Below are positions 17,220-23,514 of a DNA stretch of 25,186 nucleotides, piece by piece (positions within the stretch are counted from its first letter, which is position 1; each line of letters starts with the position of its first letter). The stretch is taken from UHGV virus genome UHGV-1407433; one strand, given 5' to 3'. This stretch comes from a virus. The notes beneath the pieces are model-generated. The model made no database searches. It saw only the letters and a program-made list of their open reading frames with translations, and had not been told where the DNA came from. The position numbers and the translations under genes were made by a program.

Positions 17220-19141
17220 TATTCATCTCCAGATAATGCCCGCGCGTAATCCGCCAGGGTCTTGTTATTGTTACGGCTGCCTTCTTCCTCCAGCAGGCTG
17301 GCCAGAAGTGAATCAAGATTTAGCTGCCAGCGGGATATGCTTATACGCAGCGCCGCCAGTGCATAAACAAAGCAATCGAGCGCCTCATTTCGTCGTTTTT
17401 TGCTGTCCCAGACGATCTTTTTCTTTCCGTCTACCCATTTTTCCACCTGCTCTTCAGCTGTTAGTTGTTGGGCCTCTGTTAGATCGTAGATTTCTGGGTT
17501 ATTCGGGAAATGAACCGCTCCCGCCAGCGGCTCGTCTCTTTGCGCCACCAGCGTGAAACGGTTATAAATCTGCTCTTTTGCGGTGTCTGTTCCTACCTCT
17601 GTGAGGTAAACACCATTCTTGTTACGCTTGCGTGGCATGTTCGCCACTGGCTTTCCATAAACCGACGCCCCCTTTATAGGGATCACACGAAACAGACCGT
17701 GTTTTTTTGAGCGGTTGTAGACGATGGTGGGATCAATGCCGCCAATATCCCAGCAAGTGCGGGATATAACCATTTCGAGACCGTTCTGGCGCTTATACGT
17801 CCTGTTGATCGCTTCATCAACTCGAGCGAGAGTCGACTCATCATCATGACGACCCATAATGATAATTTTGTCGATAAGCCAGCTTTCCTCTCCCGGCCCC
17901 CATCCCCAAACACGCATTTCGTAACGGTCAAGCTGGGAGTCAATACCCGCTGTCAGATATGCCACTCGCTCCGGCACAGACGCTTCAAAGTGCTCTTTTC
18001 GTTCCGCTAAAACTTCAGCATCGGGTCGTTCACCTATTTTCGGTTCCCACGTTTCGCCCAGGGTCGTGTTAACGAAAGTTTTTCGCTTACCCGTATCACC
18101 TTTTGTTTTTATCCAGTCCTTGACGATCTGCACCCAGGTTGTGAACGGGCTATATGCGGTCCAGATGTGGAATGTAACGCTGTCAGGAGGTTCAATTTCG
18201 GTACCGGATGAAGAAAACCAGTTAAGGCCGTCTCGTGTCCAGATACCTGTTTCATCACAAATATACCTGGCCTCCAGAAATTCCAGCTCCTGTTGTTTAA
18301 TCACACAGGCATTGTGTTCACAGAGGTAGTAAACGCTGGCAGGTTCTCCCGGAGACCATTTGAAGCCAAATGGTGTCTCTTTATCACCGAATTTCAGATA
18401 CTGCTCTTCCCCACAGTGTGGGCATGGAACATGGAACCGAAGAAAATGTTCAGACTCCTTAGCAGCTCTTTCTATCTGGCACGTACCTTTGACTTTCGGT
18501 GTAGATCCGCGAATGGATTTCGGCCATACAGAACCCTCAATACGCTTATCACCCAGAAAGGTGGGAGAACCTTCTTTCTCGATGTCATCATCGAAAGCGG
18601 CGAGCTCGTCGTAGCCAGCCACATCAACTGATTTTTCACGGTAGTTTTTTGCAGCCTTACCGCCCAGGCACCAGAAACCACGACCATTCGAGAAACGCTT
18701 CATGCTCAGCGTATTGTCCCGGTGTTTTTTACCGTACCAGGGAGCAAGCGCCAGCAACGTCGGAATATCACGAATGGTCGGTTCTACATGAGACTTCATG
18801 AAGTTTTCAGCATCACCGTCGGTTGGTAACCATATTAGGGAGTTACGCTGTTTATGTTGGATGAAATATGCGTAAACGCCGAGCAACATTTTTGAGTAGC
18901 CGACACGAGCCGATTTAACGACATTCACCTCGCGAATATAGTCATTACCCATCGCATTCATAATTGCACGCTGAAATGGCAGTGTTTCCCAGCGCCCTTC
19001 CTGGTAGGCAGACTCTTTCGGGAGATAATAATTCTCATCTGCCCATTCAACTGCTGTTTGCGGTTGCGGCCGGTACAGCGAACGTAACCCCGCCCGCGCA
19101 GAGTGCTGCAGCCCCTTAACCTGACTGTTCGATATATTCAC
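17219..19141 (-). CDS. A: Terminase large subunit A
   Basis: ATG at 19141..19139. 640 aa, [65 protein letters not shown]... closely resembles lambda gpA. Overlaps the 3' end of Nu1. Confidence 0.97.
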
Positions 19142-19661
19142 TCAGCAACCCCGGTATCATTTCATCCAGCGCAGCTGCCTTGTTCATGGCCTTAATGATG
19201 TCCTTCTTGAGGAAATCAATATGTCGGTTCTCCAGCTCCGGGAAGCGCCGCTGAACCGACAGAGGTATTCCATCGAGAATGCTGGCGATTTCTCCGGCTA
19301 CCCGCGACAGCACGAACGTGCAGAATGCGGTCTCCACCACTTCAGCGGACTCTTTTGCATTTTTTAATTCCTGAGCGTCAGCCTGAGCTCGCGTAAGTCG
19401 GTGTCGCTCATATTCAATCGTGCCAGGTTGAAGATCGGACTCAGAAGCGATACGGAGATCTTCAACTTCCTTCCGCAACTTTTCATTTTCTATAGCTGCA
19501 TCGCGCGCACTGTACCATTCGATTGCAGCAGCAGATTCAAAGAGAACCTCATTACCTTTGCCACCACCGCGGACAACCGGCATACCTTGCTCCTGCCAGT
19601 TCTGAATCGTTCGGACGCTTACCCCGAAAATTTCGGATAAGCGTTTTTTGTTAACCTCCAT
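19116..19661 (-). CDS. Nu1: Terminase small subunit Nu1
   Basis: ATG at 19661..19659. 181 aa, MEVNKKRLSEIFGVSVRTIQNWQEQGMPVVRGGGKGNEV... near-identical to lambda Nu1. Immediately downstream of cos. Confidence 0.97.
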   Translation of the reverse strand: MEVNKKRLSEIFGVSVRTIQNWQEQGMPVVRGGGKGNEVLFESAAAIEWYSARDAAIENEKLRKEVEDLRIASESDLQPGTIEYERHRLTRAQADAQELKNAKESAEVVETAFCTFVLSRVAGEIASILDGIPLSVQRRFPELENRHIDFLKKDIIKAMNKAAALDEMIPGLLSEYIEQSG

Positions 19662-19949: not shown

Positions 19950-20417
19950 TCATCGCAACAGCGCTGACCATATCGTGCCACCTGGCCGAAGACTCTTCTT
20001 CAGTTCCTCGGACACAACATCTGAGATCGCTTTTACCATTTCAGGGGATAGCTTCACGCCGGTCTTAATTTCGGGACAGATGCCAACATTGATGGCATAG
20101 CCTTTTCGTGGGTCGTTCTCTATCCGGCCAAACTGAATATTTACAGAGCCACCAATATAACCACCAGCAGGAACACCAAAGCGCGTATTCACCAGGTGCT
20201 TAATGGCGAACTCCTGCCCTTCAGCGGTCAGGAAGGTGTAATAATTTTCCTTTTGATACTCCGTCGCGGTATGGCGTGTTTCAGCGAATCCCAGCTCTAG
20301 AAGCTCAGCAGCACCAGATTTGGCTGGCAGATCACCAGACTGAAGCGCGCCACGGAAAAACAGCGCATACAGAACATCCGTCGCCGCGCCGGACAACGTG
20401 ATAATTTTATGACCCAT
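19950..20417 (-). CDS. Hypothetical protein (155 aa), last gene before cos
   Basis: ATG at 20417..20415 with AAGGA SD at about 8 nt. No family recognised from sequence alone. Confidence 0.6.
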   Translation of the reverse strand: MGHKIITLSGAATDVLYALFFRGALQSGDLPAKSGAAELLELGFAETRHTATEYQKENYYTFLTAEGQEFAIKHLVNTRFGVPAGGYIGGSVNIQFGRIENDPRKGYAINVGICPEIKTGVKLSPEMVKAISDVVSEELKKSLRPGGTIWSALLR

Positions 20418-20682: not shown

Positions 20683-20943
20683 ATGTCAGAAGGTTTTGGT
20701 TTAAAAGAAAAGGTTGAGCAGTTAGAAAAAGAATTAGCCGTACAAAAAATAGCAAATCAGCTTGCTTTTGGAGCACTAATTAAAGCAGTTAATGAGCTGT
20801 ACCCGAACAAAGATTTATATGATGGGTTGACAAAATTTGTCCAGGAAAAACTTGATCCTGAACGTGTTAAAAACATCCCTAATCTTCACGAGGCCTTTCT
20901 AGAAGCTGCGAAAATACTGAGGACTGACGCATCTCCTGAATAA
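20683..20943 (+). CDS. Hypothetical small helical protein (86 aa), plus-strand moron
   Basis: ATG at 20683 with AAGGA SD 7 nt upstream. AT-rich, charged and helical-looking sequence (MSEGFGLKEKVEQLEKELAVQKIANQL...). Opposite orientation to every other phage gene here. Confidence 0.5.
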   Translation: MSEGFGLKEKVEQLEKELAVQKIANQLAFGALIKAVNELYPNKDLYDGLTKFVQEKLDPERVKNIPNLHEAFLEAAKILRTDASPE

Positions 20944-21037: not shown

Positions 21038-21090
21038 ACCCACTCCTGTCATTGGCTTCAAAATGATAAACCCCGCATTTGCAAGTCCTA

Positions 21091-21147
21091 TTTATACCCC
21101 GCAGGGGATAAAAACCATATTATCCGCTTGCGGGGATAACCATTATC
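21091..21147. repeat. Composite element of two GATAA-armed palindromes (TTTATACCCC-GCA-GGGGATAAAA and TTATCC-GCTTGC-GGGGATAA) joined by an AACCAT linker
   Basis: Seen directly. Related in sequence and arrangement to the reverse complement of the element at 22947-22997. Confidence 0.7.
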
Positions 21148-21177
21148 AAGCCCACCAGTAGATGGGCTTTGTAATGG

Positions 21178-21435
21178 CTACTTCGCTTTTGCTTCCGCTC
21201 GCTTACGCCGGCGCTCTTCTTTCCTCTCGGCTTTTGCCATGTCCATGAATGCCTGCATGATCGAGTTCCGCATCATGTAGCTAACAAAGTGATGATTGAC
21301 ACAGCCGTTGAGGCGCAGCTGCTCGCCAAACTCATCCACCGAGGCCAATGCTTCCATCATGCCCTTCTCGCCTTTCATGAACTCTGAGAAGTCGCGCCCC
21401 GCTCTGGAGGCGCATTCTATTATTCGGGTGCTCAT
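21178..21435 (-). CDS. Hypothetical protein (85 aa) with basic Lys/Arg/Glu-rich C-terminal tail, translationally coupled to the KilA-N gene
   Basis: ATG at 21435..21433, 2 nt after the TGA of the upstream gene (TGATCATG). C-terminus ...AKAERKEERRRKRAEAKAK. Confidence 0.55.
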   Translation of the reverse strand: MSTRIIECASRAGRDFSEFMKGEKGMMEALASVDEFGEQLRLNGCVNHHFVSYMMRNSIMQAFMDMAKAERKEERRRKRAEAKAK

Positions 21436-21437
21436 GA

Positions 21438-22166
21438 TCAGGCCGCCGCATAGAGCAATTTCATCTGCCCTTTCACCGGGAATGCCGACATGCAACGCGC
21501 TTCGAAATCACGATAATCAGAGCACCCATTGGCAATGCTGGTAACGGCAATGATCTGTCGCTCAACCAATGTCAGCGCGTCAGGTTTAAGGTGCTGATGG
21601 ATTTTGTCTCCCGCAGCCAGCCGTCTTTTAACCTCTGCATATACTTCTGGTGGTAATACCTGGCCATATACCCACTTGGCACTGATCATCCCAAATAGTG
21701 CGGGGCGACGACCTGGTCGATGACGGGGCAGCCCTGACATTTTGAACATCGCAGAATAAAACGGATCGCTAAACCTCTTTTCCCATGGCTGAGATTTATC
21801 CAGAAGGAAAATAGCCTTTATTCTTTCATCGTCGATATGATGAACGGAACCCTGAATGATTGCGTCAATTTGCTCATCACACCAGATCTCAAAATCTACA
21901 GAAAGCCATCGAGCAAATCTGACCGCCAGCTTTGGGTGAAGCCATGTTCCGCCGCCACGGTCTTTGCGAGCGCGGCTGGTTTTTACATATGTGATATTCC
22001 CATATCTACTCTTTAACGCCTCGATGTAACGGACAGTCTCAGGAAGCCTAAGCCACTGAGCCGGCTCCTTGTTGAACTTGTCAGCTGCCGCAGTCGCGTC
22101 AAACCAGCCATCGTCAGAAAAACGCATGGGATGGCCTTCGAAATCAATCGGGATGATATTGGACAT
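21438..22166 (-). CDS. KilA-N domain protein (antirepressor/Bro-like), 242 aa
   Basis: ATG at 22166..22164 with AAAGGTAA upstream (the track ORF starts earlier at GTG). The N-terminus MSNIIPIDFEGHPMRFSDDGWFDATAAADKFNKEPAQWLRLPETVRYIEAL...GGGTWLHPKLAVRFARWLSVDFEIWCDEQIDAI resembles the KilA-N DNA-binding domain of phage antirepressor/Bro proteins. Confidence 0.7.
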   Translation of the reverse strand: MSNIIPIDFEGHPMRFSDDGWFDATAAADKFNKEPAQWLRLPETVRYIEALKSRYGNITYVKTSRARKDRGGGTWLHPKLAVRFARWLSVDFEIWCDEQIDAIIQGSVHHIDDERIKAIFLLDKSQPWEKRFSDPFYSAMFKMSGLPRHRPGRRPALFGMISAKWVYGQVLPPEVYAEVKRRLAAGDKIHQHLKPDALTLVERQIIAVTSIANGCSDYRDFEARCMSAFPVKGQMKLLYAAA

Positions 22167-22316
22167 CGTATTTACCTTTTTGGTGATATGAGCCAGTTCT
22201 CGCAGACATGGACAGCCCAAGAGCGGCACGATGTAAGCCACCGTCCTGTCTCTGTCTCATATCCCGAAAAGCTCTTGGTTGATATGCGCACGAGAATGCG
22301 CGGTTTACTGCGGACA

Positions 22317-22343
22317 TAAAAAAGCCCCGCATAAGCGAGGCTA
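22317..22343 (-). terminator. Intrinsic terminator (minus strand) separating the 81/73-aa gene pair from the KilA-N unit
   Basis: On the minus strand: AGCCTCGC-TTAT-GCGGGGCT (fully paired with one G-U) followed by TTTTTTAT. Lies 22 nt downstream of the stop at 22365. Confidence 0.6.
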
Positions 22344-22364
22344 AATATCGAACAACTTCTTTTG

Positions 22365-22586
22365 TTAACTGCGCGTGAAGTTGTGGTGGATGAAGTCGTC
22401 AGAGCCTAACCGATGTGAGCCATAATGGGCTTCATAGCCCTCACCTAGTGAGGCTGCCTTAGTTTCGGCCACATCTTTGGTGGCGTAAACACCGACTAAA
22501 TGCCACGGGGCATTCCTTACAACCCCCCACCCCATAACCCAACCTATATTATCAAGGTCAGGCTTCAAGCCTTCTGCAACAAACAT
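22365..22586 (-). CDS. Hypothetical protein (73 aa)
   Basis: ATG at 22586..22584 with AAGGAG about 7 nt upstream (the track ORF starts earlier at TTG). MFVAEGLKPDLDNIGWVMGWGVVRNAPWHLVGVYATKD... Confidence 0.5.
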   Translation of the reverse strand: MFVAEGLKPDLDNIGWVMGWGVVRNAPWHLVGVYATKDVAETKAASLGEGYEAHYGSHRLGSDDFIHHNFTRS

Positions 22587-22588
22587 AT

Positions 22589-22615
22589 TTATCTCCTTTG
22601 GGTACCCGGAGATAA
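22589..22615. promoter_or_regulatory. Inverted repeat TTATCTCC-N11-GGAGATAA that includes the SD of the 73-aa gene
   Basis: Perfect 8-bp arms at 22589-22596 and 22608-22615 around a GGTACC-centred spacer. One arm contains the AAGGAG ribosome-binding site of the 22365..22586 gene. Confidence 0.4.
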
Positions 22616-22645
22616 TGCTAAGCAATTGAAGCTGCAAAATAAATA

Positions 22646-22891
22646 CTATTCAACAAGCTCTGCTGTAATTGTTAACCAGCTCAAATCAGGCCGATCATGC
22701 ATCACATGTACAGCTGATTCATCAACATCGACAGCGTAAATTTTAGTGAAGGGATGGGAAGCTTTACCGGATAAAGAATCCTTCACTATCACACTTTCAT
22801 TCTGAATAACCTGGAATGTGACGTTTGCGGCTCGAACAATACCCTCGTAGTGCTCTTCAAGGTGAGCAATTGTAACTTTAACTTTTTTCAT
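22646..22891 (-). CDS. Hypothetical small acidic protein (81 aa)
   Basis: ATG at 22891..22889 with AAGGAG 9 nt upstream (the track ORF starts earlier). MKKVKVTIAHLEEHYEGIVRAANVTFQVIQNESVIVKD... Confidence 0.55.
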   Translation of the reverse strand: MKKVKVTIAHLEEHYEGIVRAANVTFQVIQNESVIVKDSLSGKASHPFTKIYAVDVDESAVHVMHDRPDLSWLTITAELVE

Positions 22892-22946
22892 AGGCTGGCT
22901 CCTTGGCTGAATGGCAACAGGCATTAGGTGAGTGTCTGCTGTAACG

Positions 22947-22997
22947 CCTATCCCTTAGCGGGGATAATGGTTGCTTTATCCCTTGCTAGGGATAAAG
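22947..22997. repeat. Composite element of two GATAA-armed palindromes (TATCCC-TTAGC-GGGGATAA and TTTATCCC-TTGCTA-GGGATAAA) joined by an ATGGTT linker; inverted copy of the 21091-21147 element
   Basis: Seen directly, immediately downstream of the Rz stop. Its reverse complement aligns with the 21091-21147 element (palindrome, AACCAT linker, palindrome). Confidence 0.7.
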
Positions 22998-22998
22998 A

Positions 22999-23514
22999 CT
23001 ATTGACGCTCGCTCTCTATTTGACGAATTCCAGCGAAATTGTTATTGCCCTTTTCAATCACGGCCAGCAGCGGCTTAATCCAGAGTACAGCCTGGCAGTA
23101 CGTTATTGAGCCGGCGGCAGCGGTACTATCATCGGCTGCGTCAGGTCCGTCGGTATCGGCGTGCATTGCGCTGGAACGTAAACGGTACGCGTATTCGAGC
23201 AGCCCACCAGCAATGTCAGCAGGAACAGGCAGATCACAGGTTTTTTCACGGCGGAGTATCTCCCGGTATTCAATTACGGTTTCTTCGGTGCTGGTGTCGA
23301 TCAGGGAGTTAAGCCTGTTGGCATGTTCTGCAACCTGATTGAATCGATTGAAGTTGAATGCCTGGGTGGCGATCACCTGCCCCTGCATAGAGTTGTCACT
23401 TCGCAGAACGTCGTTATCGCTCTGTAGGCTACTGGCGTCGGAGCAGCTCTTAACGAGAGCGACGGAAAGGCCAGCAATAACGACAACGCCGATAAGACCC
23501 GGATTAATTTTCAT
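22999..23514 (-). CDS. Rz: i-spanin Rz (N-terminal transmembrane anchor, periplasmic coiled-coil)
   Basis: ATG at 23514..23512 overlapping the endolysin stop (ATGA). [21 protein letters not shown]... N-terminal TMD then a charged helical region. Third gene of the lysis cassette, containing a +1-frame lipoprotein ORF. Confidence 0.8.
   Translation of the reverse strand: MKINPGLIGVVVIAGLSVALVKSCSDASSLQSDNDVLRSDNSMQGQVIATQAFNFNRFNQVAEHANRLNSLIDTSTEETVIEYREILRREKTCDLPVPADIAGGLLEYAYRLRSSAMHADTDGPDAADDSTAAAGSITYCQAVLWIKPLLAVIEKGNNNFAGIRQIESERQ
23103..23249 (-). CDS. Rz1: o-spanin Rz1, embedded in the +1 frame of Rz, GTG start (48 aa)
   Basis: Hand translation of the +1 frame: (GTG)KKPVICLFLLTLLVGC-SNTRTVYVPAQCTPIPTDLTQPMIVPLPPAQ*. 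Lipobox LVGC, Pro-rich mature part, GGGAG 10 nt upstream of the GTG. Absent from the ORF track (under 60 aa). An alternative TTG start at 23273 would give 56 aa. Confidence 0.65.
   Translation of the reverse strand: MKKPVICLFLLTLLVGCSNTRTVYVPAQCTPIPTDLTQPMIVPLPPAQ

Follow-up and report, generated by a model that had tools for sequence, protein, structure and literature searches.

What are the four short palindromes that stand, as two tandem pairs, on either side of a 1.8-kb group of accessory genes in the virus genome UHGV-1407433? The window analysed here, which is the whole 25,186-nt stretch of that genome, is a lambdoid prophage that resides in E. coli O68:H12 strain 97.3 (NZ_CP061758.1). 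An earlier note on this DNA had drawn attention to the palindromes and had offered several roles for them: operators for a dimeric DNA-binding protein (possibly the KilA-N protein encoded between the pairs), recombination or inversion sites of a mobile cassette, and hairpins in the late transcript. As a side remark it pointed to a resemblance to the type I-E clustered regularly interspaced short palindromic repeat (CRISPR). Our comparisons indicate that the palindromes very probably are operators of the kind bound by HipB, the antitoxin encoded by the toxin-antitoxin locus hipBA. They would thus be known operators in a context that is new, orphan, phage-borne and apparently selected.

The four sites are 20-bp dyads of the form TTATCC-N8-GGATAA that start at positions 21092, 21120, 22948 and 22976. 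A search that tolerated up to two mismatches to this form gave exactly four matches in 25,186 bp (with 0, 0, 1 and 1 mismatches), compared with 0.63 expected from shuffled sequence; none of 100 shuffles reached four. The proposal that the sites do not occur by chance therefore holds, as does the existence of four dyads, but their extents are now 21092-21111, 21120-21139, 22948-22967 and 22976-22995, and the variable spacer of 3 to 6 nt proposed for them gives way to a fixed 20-mer with eight nucleotides between the hexamer arms. The start-to-start distance is 28 bp within both pairs, corresponding to a 20-bp dyad, an 8-bp linker and a second 20-bp dyad. In the left pair, P1 (TTATACCCCGCAGGGGATAA, 21092-21111) has a weaker left half-site, TTATAC, and is separated by the linker AAACCATA (21112-21119), whose length but not sequence is conserved in the family, from P2 (TTATCCGCTTGCGGGGATAA, 21120-21139), which matches the consensus exactly. 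The right pair consists of P3 (CTATCCCTTAGCGGGGATAA, 22948-22967), the linker TGGTTGCT (22968-22975, read from the sequence) and P4 (TTATCCCTTGCTAGGGATAA, 22976-22995). The core TATCC-N8-GGATA is exact in P2, P3 and P4, and P1 departs from it at one position. Both pairs are placed alike, each immediately 3' of a gene on the minus strand: 3 nt separate P4 from the Rz stop codon (22999-23001), and P2 leads into a hairpin, beyond which is the stop of a gene for an 85-residue protein.

To define the family to which these sites belong, we ran two pattern scans of IMG/VR viral contigs, each of which returned at least 120 contigs. Among the matches listed, about 100 distinct loci carried the 20-8-20 unit once chance matches had been removed; most of them have one pair, and a few have three or four dyads. 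Taking the window and all fetched loci together, neighbouring sites less than 200 bp apart were spaced at exactly 28 bp in 118 of 121 cases. The half-site consensus from 130 distinct 20-mers is T-T-A-T-C-C-C-Y-T-N, with 1.3-1.7 bits of information in the arm that the search pattern had left free, 0-0.3 bits in the linker and flanks, and close to zero in the dyad centre. Dyad positions 7/14, 8/13 and 9/12 vary independently of each other, as would be expected for protein contacts; at positions 8/13, for example, the counts (CG 44, TG 35, CA 23, TA 14) agree with the product of the marginal frequencies. Fixed spacing, conserved half-sites and free sequence elsewhere are the signature that a dimeric DNA-binding protein would leave, and this, together with the operator match described below, bears out the first of the roles proposed for the palindromes. 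The pairs had also been described as lying in inverted orientation, which we did not confirm. The two 48-mers of the window are identical at 27 of 48 positions when aligned directly and at 31 of 48 when one is inverted, and only the linker pentamer AACCA/TGGTT, which falls in the uninformative part of the unit, is inverted between them.

The promoter of hipBA provides the closest match to this architecture. HipB has been shown to bind the consensus TATCCN8GGATA cooperatively, and a 48-mer oligonucleotide with operators O1 and O2, which has the same architecture as the window pairs, is bound with a dissociation constant of 0.6 nM (PMC3376134). We located the E. coli hipB gene at 100% identity with a HipB query. 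Its promoter carries, in order, O4 (TTATCCGCGATCGCGGATAT), 8 nt (cgcagcgt), O3 (TTATCCCGTAGAGCGGATAA), 19 nt, O2 (TTATCCTCACTAAAGGATAA), 8 nt (aacttata) and O1 (ATATCCCCTTAAGCGGATAA), and thus consists of two 20-8-20 units with the same layout as the pairs in the window. The published gaps between the E. coli operators are 10, 21 and 10 bp (PMC4150777). The 28-bp operator period recurs in hipBA promoters from seven genera, among them those of Escherichia, Pseudocitrobacter, Enterobacter, Vibrio, Psychromonas and K. pneumoniae. One hipBA operator of Enterobacter wuhouensis, TTATCCGCTTGTGGGGATAA, is identical to phage copies and differs from P2 by a single nucleotide, and the GGGTATAA variant (TATAC/GTATA half-site) that is seen in P1 also occurs in the hipB promoter of K. 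pneumoniae.

We then scored the window with a half-site matrix built solely from 46-50 operators of authentic hipBA promoters. Real operators range from 15.1 to 28.7 on this matrix, and all four window sites fall inside that range (P1, 16.4; P2, 27.3; P3, 23.8; P4, 22.0). The next best site in the window scored 4.6, and the best in the prophage's other 25 kb scored 4.9. The window sites also agree with the extended half-site of authentic promoters, TTATCC(C/G/T)(C/T)T. The phage sites therefore share three features with the HipB operators O1-O4 of K-12 and their counterparts in relatives, namely the 18-bp core, the extended half-site and the tandem 28-bp period, and have a variable centre as those operators do, but they lack the hipBA-promoter context. 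They have no hipB or hipA nearby and no overlapping promoter, they usually comprise two dyads rather than three or four, and they are located between lysis and packaging genes.

In authentic hipBA promoters the promoter elements are interleaved with the operators, and the phage pairs have no such interleaving. The K. pneumoniae hipB promoter (L255, 1476-1579), for instance, has four operators at a uniform 28-bp period with a perfect TTGACA inside one linker, and its GGGTATAA arm may double as a -10 element.

Pairs of this type occur in more than 120 viral contigs and in HK97 (locus L001, starts at 789 and 817), mEp213, mEp237 and ECP1, and a decayed copy is present in Fraca; the P3 sequence is identical in mEp237. 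N15-like Klebsiella phages of the Kpn74, KpLi5 and 48ST307 type also carry the pair, which stands beside a SopB-type partition palindrome and is 11 bp from it in one such locus (L145, 3820-3905). In phiKO2 (2420-2460) the partition site is present and the pair is absent. The 'partitioning site' of phiKO2, GTGCGACCACGGTCGCAC, is another palindrome, which adjoins the pair in the related Klebsiella phages, so the pair itself is not a SopB-type partition site. From these comparisons, a unit of about 50 bp containing the pair appears to behave as a discrete insertion or deletion in N15-like Klebsiella phages. Phage lambda has one isolated HipB-operator-like dyad, TTATTCCCTATTGAGGATAT, at 34944-34963 in the sieB/N region, with a score of 18.9.

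The carriers are mosaic phages from several groups (lambda-like, HK97-like and N15-like), and the genes that flank the pairs are diverse, forming 98 clusters among 193 open reading frames. Rz/Rz1 spanins, HNH endonucleases, small terminase subunits and proteins of unknown function are the recurrent neighbours. Because spanins, HNH endonucleases and small terminases recur, the home of the element is usually the accessory region between the lysis and packaging genes. A pair usually precedes the next late-strand gene's ribosome-binding site directly and stands beside terminators. Their identification as HipB operators would explain a recurrent but unannotated feature of the post-lysis accessory region in lambdoid and N15-like phages.

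We also asked which protein would occupy these sites. A search of the window and of the flanks fetched with 123 pair-bearing loci (1.15 Mb) turned up no homologue of HipA or HipB, a count that excludes one locus (L164) whose sole HipA/HipB match is a chromosomal hipBA locus at the end of its contig. Among 50,697 phage records there was no coliphage HipB homologue at E<=1e-3, the proteins adjoining the window pairs contain no helix-turn-helix domain, and the prophage's own immunity/early region has no HipB-type site. The host strain 97.3 has intact hipB and hipA genes at 2409817-2411405. More broadly, hipB and its operators are present in 5262 of the 5426 E. coli genomes, the hipB region is covered to less than 80% in about 12% of E. 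coli genomes, and HipB homologues occur in Klebsiella, Enterobacter, Pantoea, Citrobacter and Salmonella replicons too. Because the phages encode no detectable HipB or HipA, the neighbouring proteins lack a helix-turn-helix and the host hipBA locus is intact and common, host HipB, alone or with HipA, appears to be the most economical partner of the pairs. We consider it likely that host HipB occupies the phage pairs, and we favour, with somewhat less confidence, the fuller description of them as orphan, phage-borne HipB operator pairs bound by host HipB or HipB-HipA. Searches of the literature on HipB and hipBA in connection with prophages, lambdoid phages, decoys and other HipB targets found no report of phage-borne HipB operators.

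The excluded locus has a structure of its own. At the end of this IMG/VR contig (L164, 7006-7348) the four operators are intact, hipB is missing, and a 67-residue open reading frame identical to a segment of HipA follows. A neighbouring 700-residue open reading frame may encode a P4-type primase.

If host HipB is the partner, the pairs might serve the phage as a DNA sponge. The host's HipB dimers, together with HipA, would be expected, with good to high probability, to bind the pairs cooperatively and tightly in lysogens and infected cells, as they do at O1O2. The phage sites retain the one layout that gives HipB cooperative binding of sub-nanomolar affinity. Phage replication would amplify the pairs, to a hundred or more copies. 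Operator DNA shields HipB from the Lon protease, extending its half-life to more than 200 min (PMC3376134), and pair-bound HipB would be shielded in the same way, with HipA locked into inactive operator-bound assemblies. A review describes the HipA:HipB:operator complex as required to neutralise HipA (PMC7180214, citing Schumacher 2015). HipA locked in this manner could not phosphorylate GltX, and would not bring about the dormancy that stalls prophage induction and lytic gene expression. In this connection, hipA7 persisters have been reported to survive lambda prophage induction and to suppress late-gene expression (PMC2386839). That the phage keeps its pairs as such a sponge is a tentative proposal, as is the idea that sequestration or neutralisation of HipB-HipA is the function under selection. 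We hold a little more tentatively still to the general form of the model, in which temperate enterobacterial phages carry double-stranded DNA decoys that capture HipB-HipA and disarm HipA-mediated dormancy during infection or induction.

The position of the pairs invites a further comparison. Their distances from the cos region, which is between the Nu1 and 155-residue genes, are about 1.3 and 3.2 kb. In lambda, the right end of the genome is the last part to be packaged and the first to be injected. Given that rule, the pairs would be near the end that enters first and would be analogous to the 'leading regions' that carry anti-defence functions. Phages counter toxin-antitoxin systems by several means, including pseudo-ToxI RNA repeats, T4 Dmd, and T7 Gp4.5, which inhibits Lon. 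If the sponge model is right, the phage pairs would resemble these in that the host antitoxin side is kept effective and the toxin is unable to abort infection, but they would differ in kind, because the known examples are an RNA mimic and proteins whereas the pairs are double-stranded operator DNA that would titrate and protect a host antitoxin. Transcription-factor decoy sites that titrate a regulator, a topic treated in PMC8599769, are likewise of high affinity, without a regulated promoter and dependent on copy number; unlike them, the phage sites replicate and would be aimed at an antitoxin-toxin complex rather than an ordinary regulator.

HipBA is the founding persistence locus, and its natural role is disputed. 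Conserved orphan HipB operator pairs in temperate phages, HK97 included, would imply selection to engage HipB-HipA, and would provide work on hipBA with a natural antagonist or client. If the sponge model is true, the pairs would be the first DNA-level device against a toxin-antitoxin system, making operator DNA a new class of counter-defence, and would provide direct evidence of the importance of hipBA in phage-host conflict.

Several points weigh against this interpretation. All of the evidence on the phage sites is sequence-based. Phage lambda has no pair, so a lambdoid phage can complete its life cycle without the element. P1 is weaker than P2, P3 and P4. The hipBA promoter, too, would be derepressed by a sponge, and sequence does not predict the net effect on free HipA. 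A phage-encoded Xre-type protein of the same specificity is an alternative binder, albeit an improbable one. Finally, a promoter and terminator scan, supplemented by inspection by eye, found no promoter overlapping the pairs, which leaves a repressor role without an obvious target. The absence of a promoter fits the sponge model without proving it. Because no promoter overlaps the pairs and because the adjoining genes differ among phages, a classical repressor-target relation is unlikely to be their common function.

The best-surviving alternative is nevertheless a regulatory one, in which the pairs would be HipB operators that act in cis, so that bound HipB or HipB-HipA represses an accessory gene next to the pair or prevents read-through between the lysis genes and the packaging genes. 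This would tie phage gene expression to the level of HipB and the activity of Lon. The cis-acting model draws on the same operator match as the sponge model, and on the usual position of the pairs, just upstream of the ribosome-binding site of the next late gene and beside terminators. HipB has, moreover, been reported to bind and regulate promoters other than hipBA, namely relA, eutH and fadH, which were found by a palindrome search (PMC3920263). Against this, neither pair is overlapped by a sigma-70-like promoter, and the -10 and -35 elements of hipBA, as judged by eye, are in or next to the linkers, which in the phage pairs are unconserved. The diversity of the flanking genes, noted above, also means that there is no common target. 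We therefore regard both cis-regulation and the proposed coupling to HipB and Lon as unlikely.

It is less probable again that the pairs serve a dimer encoded by the phages themselves, Xre/Cro-like or other, whose specificity resembles that of HipB because the binders share ancestry. Short helix-turn-helix proteins can diverge beyond detection by tblastn. The searches described above, however, revealed no HipB homologue in coliphage records or in the flanks of the 123 loci, and no helix-turn-helix domain is present in the small proteins beside the pairs. Nor is there such a site in the immunity/early region, in which a phage's own regulator would normally be expected to act as well. The mosaic nature of the carriers, with different flanking genes in lambda-like, HK97-like and N15-like groups, also argues against a shared phage binder. 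The KilA-N protein, which the earlier note had suggested, is almost certainly not the binder, since mEp213 and mEp237 carry identical or related pairs and have no KilA-N gene in the region.

Host HipB thus remains the preferred partner, and a further question is whether the pairs have any binding role at all. They could be conserved recombination 'linkers' or relics of captured hipBA promoters, and the structure of the locus bears on this directly. The region from 21141 to 22342, which includes the 85-residue and KilA-N genes, is 96-99% identical to HK97, HK022 and mEp234-type phages. The region from 22315 to 23100, with the 73- and 81-residue genes, the right pair and the end of Rz, is 99.9% identical to mEp237, in which the counterpart of the right pair abuts the Rz stop. 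The left pair and its left flank are 97% identical to mEp213 and mEp043; the mEp213 homology spans 21060-21163, and in that phage the counterpart of the left pair is just downstream of Rz, after the adjacent hairpin. The window therefore stacks two alternative 'post-Rz' modules on either side of an HK97-type insert. Of 5426 complete E. coli genomes, one has the full arrangement, and the block is never found in the inverted state. Because the block is a mosaic of two modules that occur together in one of these 5426 genomes, its bracketing by two pairs is an incidental by-product of mosaic recombination. The pairs do lie either side of the 81-residue, 73-residue, KilA-N and 85-residue genes, as first described, but the idea that this block is a unit has not survived. 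Among the carrier phages the pairs are conserved and the neighbouring genes differ.

The mosaic joints are in the hairpin at 21141-21163 (23 bp) and in the terminator at 22315-22342 (28 bp), each shared by both parents, and the dyads are not at the joints. These two joint sequences are of the short conserved 'linker' type proposed for module exchange among lambdoid phages. The pairs are nevertheless at or near mosaic boundaries, close relatives differ in whether they have one (phiKO2 compared with Kpn74-type phages), and Chi sites are enriched beside the pairs, all of which would suit a linker or a relic. We counted 24 exact Chi sites within 150 bp of the pairs versus about one expected, although the loci are interrelated and the counts are not independent. 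In the window, the conserved hairpin carries a one-mismatch Chi octamer, ACTGGTGG, at 21152-21159 on the minus strand, and 12 of 96 distinct related loci have the exact Chi, GCTGGTGG, at this position. We take the orientation of Chi near the pairs to be that recognised by RecBCD entering from the right end at cos. Recombination needs sequence identity, but only the 6-7-bp arms and the exact spacing are kept in the family, and the centres and linkers are free. This is the signature of selection for binding, rather than of drift or homology, and a role without binding is therefore quite improbable.

The remaining candidates, inversion or cassette sites, RNA hairpins in the late transcript and mimicry of the type I-E CRISPR repeat, are very improbable even when taken jointly. 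Cassette sites would account for the flanking of 1.8 kb and for the inverted linker pentamers, but the arrangement is a mosaic of HK97-type and mEp237-type modules seen in a single genome, most phages have one pair, and no recombinase gene is among the neighbours. The case for RNA is that the pair region folds well (-49.2 kcal/mol, z = -6.6). The minimum-energy structure does not contain the individual dyads, however, and any palindrome is expected to give a stable RNA fold. We found no compensatory pair types at dyad positions 7/14, 8/13 and 9/12 among the 130 distinct 20-mers. In 56 distinct aligned pairs there was likewise no covariation, with a score of 0.082 compared with 0.097 in shuffled alignments (495 of 500 shuffles equalled or exceeded the observed value) and paired cells at 79.4% versus 81.0%. 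A search of the whole window against Rfam gave no match at the gathering threshold, and the only sub-threshold matches were at the terminator (about 22316-22463).

The resemblance to the type I-E CRISPR repeat is due to chance, as the earlier note had itself allowed. This repeat is about 29 nt long, and its CCCCGC-N4-GCGGGG stem-loop precedes ATAAACCG. Its longest run in common with the window sites is 9-11 nt, around GGGGATAA, with 11 nt of identity in AGCGGGGATAA. The likeness is attributed to chance because authentic hipBA operators share up to 9 nt in the same way and because the additional bases are in the non-conserved dyad centre. A 20-bp dyad also matches neither the length nor the stem of the 29-nt repeat. 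Solitary repeat units that act as RNA anti-CRISPRs have in common with the phage sites the string (A)GCGGGGATAA and a short GC-rich dyad, but differ in length, stem, loop and array structure, and the likeness is confined to the window copies and does not extend to the family. A literature text search with the motif strings yielded only noise and CRISPR typing papers.

Other known elements were compared with the dyads and set aside. The DnaA box TTATCCACA needs A at positions 7 and 9, whereas position 7 of the half-site is C, G or T (A in 1%) and position 9 is T in 68%. The gix and hix sites, judged by eye, differ in spacing or key positions. The iterons of the lambda origin are also tandem dyads with TCCC...GGGA arms, but their arm gap is 5-6 nt rather than 2-4 nt, their period is about 20-23 bp rather than 28 bp, and they are inside the O gene; they were rejected on spacing. 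Small minus-strand open reading frames (ATGGTT...TAA) that run across P2 and P1 were seen by eye, and were discounted because the CCAT after the dyad is not a feature of the family. A Fur 7-1-7 box, GGATAACCATTATCA, at 21134-21148, formed by the right arm of P2 and the start of the hairpin, was rejected on spacing or key positions. The same GGATAACCATTATCA fits 12 of the 14 specified positions of the Fur box, and is conserved in the subfamily that has this flank.

All late genes of the prophage are on the minus strand. From the lysis end, Rz (22999-23514) is followed by the genes for the 81-residue (22646-22891) and 73-residue (22365-22586) proteins, a strong intrinsic terminator found in the promoter and terminator scan (22342-22323), the KilA-N/P63C gene (21438-22166) and the 85-residue gene (21178-21435). 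Beyond the left pair are an 86-residue open reading frame on the plus strand (20683-20943), the 155-residue gene (19950-20417, minus strand) and the Nu1-type small terminase gene (19116-19661, minus strand). The same scan placed further strong terminators on the minus strand at 20553-20536 and 24326-24309. The conserved hairpin, an inverted repeat at 21140-21180 on the minus strand, abuts the stop of the 85-residue gene, is stable in the RNA fold and corresponds to the joint between mEp213-type and HK97-type sequence. An imperfect inverted repeat with 24-nt arms that are 79% complementary (21054-21077 and 21129-21152) encloses P1 and half of P2, and the whole stretch from 21054 to 21180 is densely self-complementary.

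A fifth palindrome inside the block, at 22589-22615, had been grouped with the four dyads. It is a real inverted repeat, TTATCTCC-N11-GGAGATAA, but it has other arms and another spacing, and it scores nowhere near the four dyads on the hipBA-promoter matrix. It overlaps the Shine-Dalgarno sequence and the start of the 73-residue gene (AAGGAGATAAATATG on the minus strand). In the mRNA it could mask that gene's ribosome-binding site.

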